64,000 nt of DNA from Promethearchaeota archaeon (GTDB taxonomy: Archaea > Asgardarchaeota > Lokiarchaeia > Sigyniarchaeales > SOKP01). The position numbers were made by a program, and so were the translations under genes. Positions 8,550 through 41,696 of the stretch are shown here, piece after piece. Below the pieces are notes generated by a model. That model was given only the letters and a program-made list of their open reading frames with translations, was not told the DNA's origin and searched no databases. The DNA lies in NCBI GenBank assembly GCA_048940445.1, contig JBHLON010000014.1, positions 1 to 64,000 on the forward strand, written 5' to 3'. Each line of letters begins with the position of its first letter. The stretch's first letter is position 1.

Positions 8550-8660
8550 ATGCTAGTGTGTCAAACTTGTGGATCAATCATTTCTGGAAGAAATGAAGGA
8601 TATCATTATTGTTACGCGTGCCAGAAAATAACTTATCATCTGTCTTTCAGGTTTAAGTGA
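8550..8660 (+). CDS. 36-aa zinc-finger microprotein
   Basis: MLVCQTCGSIISGRNEGYHYCYACQKITYHLSFRFK*, two CxxC pairs; below the ORF-track cutoff. Confidence 0.55.
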   Translation: MLVCQTCGSIISGRNEGYHYCYACQKITYHLSFRFK

Positions 8661-8864
8661 TAGATGATCGCGAATAAAATAATATTAAAATAAAAAGTCT
8701 GGATGAGATTTATACTAAAAGATGTGGTATAAATTAACAACTTCGTGAGGGTGACTATCGTTGATTGAAATAAAGAACCTGAGTGTTATAATTGTGGGAG
8801 TTGTTTAAATGAAAAGAAATTTTTAAGGATCTTGTTAAGCGGAACTTAATAATAAGTAGAAAAT

Positions 8865-36300: not shown

Positions 36301-37935
36301 ATGCCCCAATTTGACTTTGATATAGAGATTCAAAAGTATTTTAATAATTTTTATGCAGATATAGACCGTGTCAATTGGGAAAAATGGTTGGACATATCAA
36401 GTAGTGAAGAATATCTAGAGCTAGCGCTAAAGTTATCAGGCTTGTCTTCTATTGATGGTCTTTTTGATAGGCTTAACACTGAAACAACCGAGTCAAAAAA
36501 GATTTCTTTGAATTTAAGTGCCTTCCTCAGTAGCTATGGTAATTCTAGCATTCCAATATTATGTCATACTTCTGGAACGACTAATAATAAAATTTCAGCA
36601 TTAAAATGGTTTCATATGTCTAAAGCTATAGTTAAGAGAAATTGGGCTCCTGGTATGCAAGCTATTTTTGAATCAAGTGGCTTAAACAGAAATTCATCAG
36701 CTGTAATATTCGTTCCCTCAAGGATTAAATTTGATGGCCTTAAAACTTTTGAAGGTCAAAGATACATTTCATTATATTCATCTGAGTTTTCCCAGAGAGT
36801 AATGCTTTCAATAATTAAACCAAAAGCATTTTCTTTTTATGAGTATAAGAATTCAAAGAATCTGGACGTCATAGCCAAGATTTTAAGTTTAGAAGGAATA
36901 GCTGTTATTTCTGCTCCAGCATTAACTATCTTGGGATGGGCAGATTTAGAAAAATTACAAACAGGTATAAAAAATTCGTTAGAAAACTTACCAAAAGAAA
37001 AAAATTCAATTCTTGAAAAATTTTTATCTATTATCGAAAGGAAAGGCATAGAAAAAGCTTCTGAGATTATACAAAATAAACTCTCCGAAAAATTATCTGA
37101 AGCAACCCTTATATTTAGTATAAGTTCTCTTTCTGAACAGAATTGGTCTTTGATACGTAAATTTATGAAATGGAAAAAGGGGAATGAGCGATTTACGAAT
37201 CTTTATGTAGCATCAGAAATTGGTCCATTTGCAGCTAGTATTTCAAAAGGAGATTTTAAACTTTCGCATTTAAACAGAATGTATGTTTTTCCTCTTACTA
37301 TACCTATATTAGAATATAAAAACAAGAGAAGATTAATCTCTGAAGTGTCAAATCAAATAGGTAAACTTTTTATTTCAAGAATGGGTAATAAAAAAGCCTT
37401 AATTAATATCAATGTAGGAGATATAATAACTGCTATGAATTCAGAAGGGTTGCCTCAGATAGATGGGAAAATTATTAGATCAAGCTTTCAATTAAATTAT
37501 AAGTTAAAGTTATCTAAAAAAGTTGAAGTTCCTTATAAGCATGAGATTTTAGCCGGGGATTATTTTTCCTTAAATGAATTAATCATCAACCAACCTAGAA
37601 ATTTAGTAAATTGTCTGAAACTTAACTGTAACTTGCAAACTGATGCCTTATTGCTTATAAAAAGAGAAAGCAATTCTTGGGAATTGGTTCTCCCTTTAGA
37701 TTTGAAATCAAGCTGTGTAAATGCAACAGAAGTATTAGAGACTATATTGAAATGCCCAACTCAAGCAGATCTTTATCAGGCAATTAGAAATAAGTCAATT
37801 AATTTAAAATTTATAGAAGATTTACCTGTTGATTTTCTAGCAACCCGAGAAGCTATATTAAAAAAAGTAAGAGAGGGGCAAATACCTAAAGGTATTTTAA
37901 AGAAGTGGCCTTTATATGTGATTTCACCTTGTTAA
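36301..37935 (+). CDS. GH3/ANL-like adenylate-forming enzyme
   Basis: HTSGTT P-loop-like motif, YVASE, NVGDII...I.R. Confidence 0.6.
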   Translation: MPQFDFDIEIQKYFNNFYADIDRVNWEKWLDISSSEEYLELALKLSGLSSIDGLFDRLNTETTESKKISLNLSAFLSSYGNSSIPILCHTSGTTNNKISALKWFHMSKAIVKRNWAPGMQAIFESSGLNRNSSAVIFVPSRIKFDGLKTFEGQRYISLYSSEFSQRVMLSIIKPKAFSFYEYKNSKNLDVIAKILSLEGIAVISAPALTILGWADLEKLQTGIKNSLENLPKEKNSILEKFLSIIERKGIEKASEIIQNKLSEKLSEATLIFSISSLSEQNWSLIRKFMKWKKGNERFTNLYVASEIGPFAASISKGDFKLSHLNRMYVFPLTIPILEYKNKRRLISEVSNQIGKLFISRMGNKKALININVGDIITAMNSEGLPQIDGKIIRSSFQLNYKLKLSKKVEVPYKHEILAGDYFSLNELIINQPRNLVNCLKLNCNLQTDALLLIKRESNSWELVLPLDLKSSCVNATEVLETILKCPTQADLYQAIRNKSINLKFIEDLPVDFLATREAILKKVREGQIPKGILKKWPLYVISPC

Positions 37936-38021
37936 ACAAAAATAAAACTAATAAGTTATAAAAAGACACTATAAATTCCTTATTGATTTTAATTATACAT
38001 AACAATAAATTGGTTTTTAAA

Positions 38022-38495
38022 ATGAAAGATAAATTCAATTTCGTTGGTACAAAGATTAATGAATTCGAATTATCAAATTCTCGAGGAGAAAACAAAAATA
38101 TACGAGATTTACAAGGACAGAATGTGGTACTTGTATTATTTAGAAGTAAAAATTGACCTTATTCTAAAGCTCATGCCCAGAAACTTAGTAAAGACTATGA
38201 AAAGTTCAAAGATTTTAATGCAGTACTTTTTACTATTTTACCCGATGATTTTAAGAGCGCAAAGATATTCGAAGAAAATTTCGCGAAAAATGCATTTCCA
38301 ATATTCTATGATAATAAAAAGAAGGTAAATAAAATGTTAAAACAAGAAGTTAAACCTTTAAAACTGGGACGGATGCCAGCCCTTCTTATTATAGATAAAG
38401 AAGGAATTATTAGATATGCATACTATAGTGATTCTATGTCCGATATCCCCGAGAATGAAGTTGTATTTGAAGTACTTAAAAATCTTAATAAATAA
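38022..38495 (+). CDS. AhpC/TSA peroxiredoxin-like protein with in-frame TGA (probable selenocysteine, codon 45)
   Basis: ...VVLVLFRSKN-TGA(38154-38156)-PYSK... continues in frame to PALLIIDKEGIIRYAY...DIPENE and TAA at 38493-38495; 157 aa. Confidence 0.8.
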
Positions 38496-38639
38496 TATGA
38501 TTTGGTATGAATAAAATATAAAAAATTGTTGAATTTTATTCTTAGAAGTTAGCCATACTTTACCAAATCAAAATCCTTTTACTAAATAACTGCATTTTGA
38601 AATTTGTTCACCAAGAATTATTATAAATTTGAAATAGTC

Positions 38640-39038: not shown

Positions 39039-39911
39039 TTATATATTTTTTAGGTGTTTAGAAATAGTTTTATCTTTTCTCCTGGTATAAAGCTCATCAT
39101 ATTTTCTTCCCAATTCTCCCATCTTTTCAATATCATGCTTTTGGTTTGCGATTATCTCTTCTAATCCATCTTCAAAGAACAAATCTTTTTTATATTTTCT
39201 CGCAGGCGCACCAAGATATATCCAACCTTCTTCTAATTCTTGCCCAACTGTTGTAAGAGAACTAGCAGCTAATACAGCATTCTTATGAATATGGGTTCCT
39301 GGCATAACAACGGAATGGACTCCAATCCTAACATTATCTTCAATTATAGTCTTTCTAATAATCAATAAGTTTCCAATTATAATTGACGATTGAATAATAC
39401 TAGCTTGACCACAGACTACGTTTTTTCCAAATTCTATAAATTCTGTATCACACCATGCTTCAAAAAGGGAATTCGAAAACTTAGTTTTAACTGAAAAAAG
39501 CTTAAAACAGAGATTATCTAAGAAGGGAAGGGGAAATTTATGGGCTACCCAGATTGGCCATCTCTTAATAGTATTTCGAACACTCCAATAGCGATAATCT
39601 CGATCTTTTATCTCTCTCAGAAATGTACCTTCCCGAGGCTTATGCAGAAGATTAGCGCAAATAAGCAAAAATTTAGCAATTAAGAGTGACGAAAAAGCTA
39701 AAGAGACATATATAACAAAAATTAAAAGTGGAAGAAAGATAAGAAAGTGTACAAAATGATAATAATATAAAAAGTTCCAATACCACCAAAATTCAAACTG
39801 AATCACAAAAAAACTAAACCAAATTTCAAAAATGTATAGGATTAAGTATTTTTTCTTAACCAATACAAGACTTGTATGAGGTCCTACCCGAAAATTTGCT
39901 GGTACAGACAT
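39039..39911 (-). CDS. Membrane/LbH module type C, second copy
   Basis: Close paralog of 31128-32078 (MSVP..RVGP, KTKFSNSLFE, GNLLIIRKTIIED). Confidence 0.75.
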   Translation of the reverse strand: MSVPANFRVGPHTSLVLVKKKYLILYIFEIWFSFFVIQFEFWWYWNFLYYYHFVHFLIFLPLLIFVIYVSLAFSSLLIAKFLLICANLLHKPREGTFLREIKDRDYRYWSVRNTIKRWPIWVAHKFPLPFLDNLCFKLFSVKTKFSNSLFEAWCDTEFIEFGKNVVCGQASIIQSSIIIGNLLIIRKTIIEDNVRIGVHSVVMPGTHIHKNAVLAASSLTTVGQELEEGWIYLGAPARKYKKDLFFEDGLEEIIANQKHDIEKMGELGRKYDELYTRRKDKTISKHLKNI

Positions 39912-40804
39912 TATTTTTCCTTATCGTGATTATAATTATTATTTAATAAATCTTTTTTATCAGCATCTATATTCACTTCATGATCGACTTCGTAACGGGT
40001 TTCTTCTTCAACATCCTTTTTAAAGATTATATCACGTCTTTGCTGGGCATACTTGTTTGGTTTAAATTTCATTGCTGGCAAACCAAGATAGATCCAACCA
40101 GGTTCTAAAAATTGGTTATAATTTATGTTAGAAAAAGCACTGCTTACAGATTCTTCTCCTAAAATAGCTCCAGGAGAAACATTAGAAACGCCTCCAACTA
40201 CAATGTAATCCTCAAAAATTACCTTCTTTATAATTAGATACTTACCTACTACCATAGAACTCATAATTACAGCGCCTTGACCAATCGTTATCCTTCTCCC
40301 AAATTTTATAAAATCTGTGTCTACCCATGCATCTTGTAGGTGACTGGAAAAGTCTATGCGGACACCAAACCATCTAAAGCCCCACATCACTATCCAAGGC
40401 AAAGGATTATTAGTCATCAACCATAAGGCTAACTTTTTCAATTCGATCCGCAAACGCCAAAATTCAAAATCAGTATTCCCAGATTCTGCTCTAAATACAC
40501 CCTCTTTCGGTTTATGTATCATATTAACGATTAATAGAACTGCTTTTGAAAAGATTGCTATGCCAAAAATGAAAATAAAATATAATATGAAAAGCCAAAA
40601 TGGTAAAAGCAACATAGTGATGATCCAATTGTTTATGTATCGAGAAATATCAAAAAACACGGTAATTGCCATATAGCCACTGATCCAAAGAATTGGAATG
40701 TATAAGATAAGGAATTTAAGACTAATTCTACTTATTGCGCTACTTGTAATAAAATCGATCGTATAATCTACTTTATCATTTGCTAGTGAGTTAGATTCAT
40801 TCAT
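39911..40804 (-). CDS. Membrane/LbH module type B, stand-alone
   Basis: DF.TSSAISRI..KFL, HKPKEG, MSSMVVGKYLII; start taken at ATG 40804 after GAGGAG rather than the TTG at 40867. Confidence 0.75.
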   Translation of the reverse strand: MNESNSLANDKVDYTIDFITSSAISRISLKFLILYIPILWISGYMAITVFFDISRYINNWIITMLLLPFWLFILYFIFIFGIAIFSKAVLLIVNMIHKPKEGVFRAESGNTDFEFWRLRIELKKLALWLMTNNPLPWIVMWGFRWFGVRIDFSSHLQDAWVDTDFIKFGRRITIGQGAVIMSSMVVGKYLIIKKVIFEDYIVVGGVSNVSPGAILGEESVSSAFSNINYNQFLEPGWIYLGLPAMKFKPNKYAQQRRDIIFKKDVEEETRYEVDHEVNIDADKKDLLNNNYNHDKEK

Positions 40805-40814
40805 ATAGCTAATT

Positions 40815-41696
40815 TTACTCCTCTTTTTTTTCCTCTTTATTACTTTTGAGCGATTCTGCTCTCTCAAAATCCGTTTCAGAGATATCTAAATAATCTATTA
40901 CTTTTTTCTTAAAAATACGACGCAAAGGAGCTCCAAAATAGTAATTATCACCTTTTAAAATATTAAATTTTGTGGCACCACTCATAGGTAACAGCCACGA
41001 ATTATCATTTACCTCAGAACCAGGTCCTATACAATTGAATGCACCCGCAGTTACATTATTACCAATTTTTACTCTGAAAAAAGAAATATTTCCAAAGATA
41101 CCTTCTACGGCATGTGAACTTATCGCACCTCCAACCCCAAAGTAACAATTTTTACCAATAGTTACAAACCTATCAGCGCCTACATTCTCTTCGAGAGTGG
41201 TTCCTTTTCCTATAATATTGGTTCCAATAAAATTATAAAGCCAAGTGATTAGCCAAGGAAAGGGTCCTCTTACTATGGAATTTTTTGGATATTTTATGAC
41301 AAAACTTCGGATGTGATAATAATTTACTGTTTTACTGGGAATGTTTCTAGGGATAATTCCATCCTTTGAAGGAGAATTTTTCTCAGTTATCCTCCAAATG
41401 CCTCGCGTAATTAAAGCCATAAAAAACACATGAACTAAATAACATAATATGATTATCAAGGGCATAAAAATTGAAGCTAAGAGCGGTTCAAATCGGGTAA
41501 AGAGTAAAAAGAAATTTGGTTCTTGCAAGAAATATGGTAAATAAAATAACATGATGTATAACATAAAAATAATTGCTGGAATAAGGAATGACCCAAAATA
41601 AATTATGAAAAATAACGTCATATACCAATGAAATTGTAAATTAATTTCTTCTTTGACAATTCCTTTCGTAGATTCGTTTTGTTCGGTACTTTCCAT
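40815..41696 (-). CDS. Membrane/LbH module type A, stand-alone
   Basis: LQFHWY, GIIPRNI.SKT.NYYH.RSF, EGIFGNI, YFGAPLR. Confidence 0.75.
   Translation of the reverse strand: MESTEQNESTKGIVKEEINLQFHWYMTLFFIIYFGSFLIPAIIFMLYIMLFYLPYFLQEPNFFLLFTRFEPLLASIFMPLIIILCYLVHVFFMALITRGIWRITEKNSPSKDGIIPRNIPSKTVNYYHIRSFVIKYPKNSIVRGPFPWLITWLYNFIGTNIIGKGTTLEENVGADRFVTIGKNCYFGVGGAISSHAVEGIFGNISFFRVKIGNNVTAGAFNCIGPGSEVNDNSWLLPMSGATKFNILKGDNYYFGAPLRRIFKKKVIDYLDISETDFERAESLKSNKEEKKEE

Follow-up and report, generated by a model that had tools for sequence, protein, structure and literature searches.

The PrxL gene and its surroundings

The window analysed here is a 64,000-nt stretch of DNA from a Promethearchaeota archaeon, and at 38022..38495 on its forward strand it carries a coding sequence of 157 sense codons for a member of the Prx-like thiol:disulfide oxidoreductase family (PrxL). 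The frame opens with an ATG at 38022, closes with a TAA at 38493-38495 and contains one in-frame TGA at 38154..38156, codon 45, which is predicted to be read through as selenocysteine (Sec). This TGA lies in the context FRSKN-U-PYS, as the first position of a U-P-Y-S redox box whose second position is Ser48 (38163..38165, forward strand). Further along the same strand is the codon for Arg117 (38370..38372), in a G-R-M-P context and in a column that is invariant across the family in the homologue alignment. The initial annotation had described an AhpC/TSA-like frame of this length, broken only by the TGA and free of Cys, with the Sec as its sole redox residue, and all of this stands: reading of the whole frame (38022-38495) found no Cys codon, and the Pfam search described below agrees.

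The gene is also, as had been proposed, one that ORF calling misses. The ORF listing of the locus consists of 37983-38156, which runs up to the TGA, a 53-aa tail at 38334-38495 and an off-frame 94-aa ORF at 38044-38328, the spurious overlapping frame that had been remarked upon. Homologues in the protein database are affected in the same way: those from long contigs are 88-115 aa in length and start after the TGA, and full-length ones have W at the Sec column, presumably a gene-calling artefact of table-4 calls on short contigs. In two full-length NCBI homologues (P0069 and P0070) the column of the Sec holds an Asp, with a Cys three residues later (D-x-F-C), which would be a Sec-to-Asp replacement, provided that they are not miscalls. 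Public records split or truncate the gene, and its annotation should be one Sec-containing PrxL; as a gene call, the finding is chiefly an annotation correction.

Just upstream of PrxL on the same strand is a 544-aa ORF (36301-37935) with an SGTT motif, which is found beside PrxL in 17 related loci. It has no sequence match in Pfam, NCBIfam or PDB, and its structure resembles PaaK/CapK/GH3-type adenylate-forming enzymes in the ESM Atlas (TM 0.56-0.58). From the other side, three consecutive, mutually paralogous genes on the reverse strand (39039-41696), each encoding a membrane and hexapeptide-repeat (LbH) protein, converge on PrxL, and at least two of the three are syntenic with it in about 10 related loci. 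These LbH genes and the adenylate-forming-like gene at 36301 might belong together. Searches of Pfam, NCBIfam and PDB sequences with the two ORFs that flank PrxL returned nothing usable.

Fold, redox box and the cysteine-free clade

Protein searches were run with Cys substituted for Sec. Pfam AhpC-TSA matched residues 8-132 (2.6e-21), with Redoxin matching as well, and an AF2 model of high confidence (pLDDT 96.6) has the thioredoxin/peroxiredoxin fold, with residues 16-135 forming one domain and residue 45 immediately preceding a helix at 46-57. The nearest PDB structures are Sulfolobus Bcp1 and Bcp4 (TM 0.83-0.86), followed by other peroxiredoxins and ResA. Despite the likeness to BCP/PrxQ peroxiredoxins in structure and Pfam family, and an Arg117 in a Prx-like context, the protein is not a member of that group, as the PxxxTxxC motif with its peroxidatic Cys is not kept: Arg stands for Pro, Sec for Thr and Ser for the peroxidatic Cys. 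In the alignment to Bcp1 (3drn), the Thr of TxxC is matched by Sec45 and the peroxidatic Cys by Ser48, and it follows that the Sec opens a CxxC-type redox box, in agreement with the published PrxL, and is not the counterpart of the peroxiredoxin catalytic Cys. The earlier placing of the UGA at the catalytic site therefore holds if a CxxC site is meant, but not if that of a peroxiredoxin is meant. The R-x-x-x-L-I-I-D context of Arg117 suggests that it corresponds to the conserved active-site Arg of peroxiredoxins. Among NCBIfam models the best match was the SelL-related redox family NF040769, and UxxU paralogues in this PrxL subfamily recall SelL (UxxU), but at 46 bits against a cut-off of 120 the protein falls far short of membership.

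A read-through search found the gene in 41 of the 201 genomes of the phylum, the source genome included, and every full-length copy in these 41 has the in-frame TGA; three paralogues have two. Across 30 fetched Asgard loci the TGA column is identical without exception, as U-P-[Y/H/F]-[S/A/T/C]. Species-representative genomes, when scanned, contributed a further 15 Asgard records, mostly from Promethearchaeota, and about 40 bacterial ones, mostly from Chloroflexota/Anaerolineae, and the added orthologues in which the motif was recovered likewise have TGA at the Sec column. The bacterial orthologues (Chloroflexota, Thermoleophilia and KSB1; L065-L099) are 34-41% identical and carry the TGA in the same column, as UPFC or UPYC. 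The alignment of homologues thus gave the outcome that the initial annotation needed, a UGA conserved at the homologous redox-active position of a selenoprotein family, although its expectation of Cys in that column failed, since every Asgard or bacterial locus read has TGA there. In the alignment published by Huang 2024 the Sec column aligns with the first Cys of CxxC in Cys homologues.

PrxL has been reported in Lokiarchaeota in UxxC and UxxU forms (Mariotti 2016, PMC4989117), and a Prx-like protein was recorded in 43.2% of Sec-using Asgard archaea (Huang 2024, PMC11227280); these articles, together with our own search for the machinery, agree with the earlier statement that Lokiarchaeota encode both Sec machinery and Prx-like selenoproteins. 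The window protein resembles Asgard PrxL in family and lineage, AhpC/TSA fold, Sec as first residue of the box, lack of any Cys outside the box and a recoding signal in the 3′UTR. It differs at the second box position, where PrxL has Cys or Sec (UxxC/UxxU) and the window's clade has Ala, Ser or Thr, Ser48 in the present case. The article text of PMC4989117 and PMC11227280, in the portions considered here, gives the UxxC and UxxU forms only. The supplementary FASTA of Huang 2024 (PMC11227280) contains Lokiarchaeia sequences labelled as Sec forms that read ...FRSKS-X-PYSKAH... and ...X-PYAKAH..., which means that the cysteine-free variant has already been catalogued. The PrxL family, its cysteine-free forms included, is already published and the finding is in that respect a known one; what had been called a hidden gene is hidden from gene callers, not from the literature, which already holds its family and UxxS/UxxA members.

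Three further comparisons help to place the protein. Bacterial Prx-like UxxC selenoproteins (Zhang & Gladyshev) are listed in PMC13188914, and the bacterial orthologues described above share the TGA column with the window gene, although all 35 bacterial rows of our tree are UxxC. A table of that 2026 review also has a separate entry, "Peroxiredoxin-like family protein (cd02970), UxxS" (PMC13188914), which as a table entry resembles the window protein in being an AhpC/TSA-type predicted selenoprotein with a UxxS box. Glutathione peroxidase (UxxT), 1-Cys peroxiredoxins and monothiol glutaredoxins are likewise thioredoxin-fold enzymes that have a single redox residue at a helix N-terminus, followed three positions later by a residue that is small or bears a hydroxyl, but the resemblance is one of logic only and does not extend to sequence membership.

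How did a protein of this family come to be without a second Cys? We built a tree of 74 distinct sequences with the 35 bacterial rows as outgroup, in which the Asgard rows form one group (SH-aLRT 100). All rows with Ala, Ser or Thr at the second box position fall into a single clade (SH-aLRT 95) of 18 rows (15 Ala, 2 Ser, 1 Thr), which lies within the Asgard UxxC and UxxU forms, and the Sec is kept in all 18. The box context of the clade is ...RSK[N/S]-U-PY[A/S/T]-KAH..., as against ...R[D/N/S]I[N/H]-U-P[Y/F]C-RWH... in the UxxC forms. The nearest relative of the window protein, with which it pairs, is a UPYA protein at 89% identity, so that the Ser of the window protein is a recent change from Ala. 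Read from the tree, Ala is ancestral in the clade, Ser and Thr are recent changes and the two Ser are of separate origin. The initial annotation had put Ser at the resolving position, but this residue is not a conserved feature, the clade usually having Ala. In some genomes (for example G008) UxxA and UxxC copies occur side by side, which suggests that the clade is a paralogue in which the second Cys was lost a single time. A UxxU paralogue (U-G-H-U) is present on the reverse strand at L023:1824-2173 (G041 C4:673573-673922), directly upstream of a UxxC copy, and each of these two copies in G041 has its own three-helix element in the 3′UTR.

A conserved 3′UTR element and the selenocysteine machinery

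The PrxL coding sequence is followed on the same strand by a conserved three-helix junction at 38499..38569, a candidate SECIS, which starts 3 nt past the stop codon and about 350 nt past the UGA. Helix P1 pairs 38499-38506 with 38562-38569 (GAUUUGGN / NCCAAAUC); P2 pairs 38509-38517 with 38533-38541 in 9 bp and encloses a 15-nt A-rich loop (38518-38532); and P3 pairs 38546-38549 with 38557-38560 around the loop UAGCCAU. An AUGA at 38507-38510 corresponds to NNGA across the family. In the family consensus P2 is 9-12 bp long with an A-rich loop of 11-18 nt, which in many members ends in UUG, GAG or UAG, and P3 reads AAGU-UAGCCAY-ACUU.

The element is conserved behind every orthologue compared. 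Among 29 sequences, 94.9% of cells are paired and 15 of the 22 pairs show compensatory change; none of 500 shuffled controls did as well and slid controls came nowhere near. RNAalifold recovered the identical three helices, and the window copy has a folding z-score of -3.46. A covariance model of the element had one match in the source genome, at 38492-38571, and matches in 38 of 61 genomes of the family, and each match compared with a gene call sits directly behind a copy of PrxL. It is because of this position, conservation and exclusive linkage that we infer the element to be the SECIS of this PrxL subfamily. Rfam at gathering thresholds and ARAGORN gave no match in the window. The SECIS of bacterial selenoprotein genes lies inside the coding sequence; just after the window's UGA we found no significant fold of the bacterial type (z = +0.65).

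The element departs from the published lokiSECIS of PrxL, which consists of AUGA, 9 bp, an 11-nt loop and GA (PMC4989117). P2 of the family answers to the lokiSECIS description of a 9-bp stem capped by a loop of some 11 nt with adenines first and G last, and P2 of the window can be read as AUGA + 9 + 11 + 9 if two weak pairs are allowed. The element lacks the kink-turn core, AUGA before the stem and GA/AA after it: the GA of NNGA is Watson-Crick paired with UC, and the column pair 23-59 (GC 25, AU 3, UA 1) is compensated family-wide. A scan of 30 orthologous UTRs for the canonical SECIS pattern (NTGA, 6 or more bp, GA/AA) returned nothing. A kink-turn was also sought at the P1 base, within the strands of the junction and at the P2 top; some lineages have GA...AUGA on either side of the P2 loop, a feature that the window's clade does not conserve. 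The two Asgard PrxL subfamilies differ in this respect, as the "MKDKF..." subfamily keeps the stem and loop without the GA/GA core and the "FFRGxW-U-xx-C/U" subfamily is canonical, with the core present in relatives within a junction that also has a small 3′ hairpin. A motif search of the source genome for this second subfamily (FFRGxW-U) found none. A C-terminal AhpC fragment at the edge of contig C28 yielded nothing that could be read.

A genome-wide scan for the canonical pattern yielded mostly chance matches, the genome being 30% GC, together with the real SECIS of VhuU, a canonical lokiSECIS that consists of AUGA, 9 bp, AAAAAUCAUAG and then AA. The window has a 36-codon zinc-ribbon-like ORF (CxxC...CxxC; feature span 8550-8741) that ends in TGA-TAG at 8658-8663, and about 40 nt further on is a hairpin of canonical lokiSECIS shape (8703-8741) with AUGA, a 9-bp stem, an 11-nt loop UAAAAGAUGUG and AAC. 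This hairpin could be a chance occurrence in a genome of such low GC content or could belong to a C-terminal Sec.

The source genome (3.64 Mb, 93% complete) encodes every component of the archaeal Sec pathway: tRNA-Sec, PSTK, SepSecS, EFsec and SelD. The machinery that the initial annotation had wished to see confirmed (SepSecS, selB, SelD and tRNA-Sec) is therefore all there, with PSTK in addition. SepSecS is encoded at C61:60330-61631 (482 bits, over the cut-off) and the archaeal EFsec at C61:66141-67583, where the selB model scored 233 bits versus 133 for EF-Tu and Pfam aSelB_III matched; PSTK on contig C59 matched across its full length (146 bits), and the SelD gene on contig C2 carries its own in-frame TGA. 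The tRNA-Sec gene proved harder to find. RF01852 had no match at E <= 1e-3 on the whole genome and ARAGORN none in the unspliced SepSecS/EFsec region, and it was a weak unspliced match of 23.6 bits beside SepSecS that pointed to the gene, which is 157 nt long and adjoins SepSecS on the reverse strand (C61:61702-61858, equal to L049:5703-5859). The 9-bp acceptor halves match perfectly, and once inserts of 34 nt (D-loop) and 30 nt (T-loop) are excised in silico, ARAGORN reports a tRNA-SeC(UCA). The two inserts appear to be introns, which would be the reason why the unspliced gene escaped both programs.

The tRNA-Sec gene is kept in 33 of 41 genomes of the family. In aligned relatives its exons are nearly invariant and its inserts vary with compensatory changes; the D-loop insert (about 34 nt) is present in all 14 and forms its own hairpin, also with compensatory changes, and the T-loop insert is precisely absent from two relatives. 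The passage on tRNA-Sec in Mariotti 2016 (PMC4989117) describes an intron in the T-loop only.

Reading of the UGA codon and a proposed lone selenol

Taken together, the observations make it very probable that this is a working selenoprotein gene within the Asgard PrxL family already published, with UGA codon 45 as its predicted Sec codon. What else might this UGA be? One answer is that it is read through by near-cognate decoding with Cys or Trp. With the AUGA_GA core absent, the element is only a presumed recruiter of EFsec, which leaves room for this reading, and full-length database proteins have W at the column, albeit from gene callers and not from data. We consider it very improbable, as the same genome has the complete Sec machinery and other selenoprotein genes and the UxxC/UxxU redox boxes of relatives are typical of selenoproteins. 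In addition, the sampled genomes of the family without the PrxL gene had no covariance-model match to the element, and for genus g4 the sampled genomes yielded no match to any of the three, namely PrxL, the element and the tRNA-Sec gene.

A second answer, the one that deposited annotations imply, is that the UGA terminates translation, which would leave a peptide of 44 residues or a C-terminal fragment with its own start. TGA serves as a normal stop codon in the source genome, since 210 of about 1340 long ORFs end in it, roughly as many as in TAG, and a canonical kink-turn SECIS is missing. Yet neither fragment would hold a whole thioredoxin fold, which in the AF2 model requires all of residues 16-135 as a single domain; the active-site helix begins right at the UGA, and the first in-frame Met downstream of it is codon 105. 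Both halves are, moreover, conserved in one frame. Against three indel-free relatives there are 18-19 synonymous and 11-14 non-synonymous differences in codons 1-44, and 16-19 and 12-14, respectively, in codons 46-88, a similar pattern which implies that both flanks of the TGA are translated in this frame. Judged from these counts, purifying selection acts on the codons on either side of the TGA. Termination at codon 45 is, consequently, very unlikely.

The two remaining readings carry next to no weight. That the TGA is a nonsense mutation or a sequencing or assembly error in a pseudogene would suit the truncation of the ORF by gene callers and the 88-115 aa fragments from long contigs, but the same TGA recurs across 40 independent genomes, in copies as little as about 50% identical, and also in bacteria, the frame is intact with a synonymous excess on both sides, and a conserved RNA element follows the stop codon. 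A genome-wide, code-4-like reassignment of TGA to Trp, which the W in short-contig database proteins would fit, has a negligible probability given the 210 ORFs that end in TGA and the several PrxL orthologues that themselves terminate in it.

If codon 45 encodes Sec, then EFsec would deliver Sec-tRNA(Sec) to it under the direction of the 3′UTR element, whose P2 hairpin (9 bp, A-rich loop) resembles the apical part of lokiSECIS, with Watson-Crick pairs in place of the GA/GA core. Sec45 would be the sole redox residue, at the N-terminus of the first helix, and with no second Cys it could not close an internal selenenylsulfide as a UxxC PrxL can. Most likely, it would react with peroxide or a disulfide as a lone selenolate, giving a selenenic acid or a mixed Se-S bond that an external thiol or a partner protein would in turn resolve, along the lines known from glutathione peroxidase, 1-Cys peroxiredoxins and monothiol glutaredoxins; the invariant Arg117, in its Prx-like position, would fit a role in peroxide or disulfide activation.

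More tentative, and on balance in some doubt, is the broader proposal that "MKDKF" PrxL is recoded by a SECIS variant without a GA/GA kink-turn, in which a three-helix junction with the invariant UAGCCA loop takes the place of the core, and that one clade of it is a lone-selenol enzyme. Neither the core-less RNA nor the lone-selenol clade is discussed in the portions of the Asgard selenoproteome texts considered here (PMC4989117, PMC11227280).

We conclude that this gene bears on two aspects of selenium biology in Asgard archaea. A natural thioredoxin-fold clade whose sole redox residue is Sec would allow a clean study of what selenium does without a resolving thiol. Asgard SECIS elements have been cited as evidence that a direct line connects them with the eukaryotic kink-turn SECIS. 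A core-less 3′UTR element behind a widespread Asgard selenoprotein gene, if it is true, would offer a test case for how the archaeal Sec machinery recognizes its signal.
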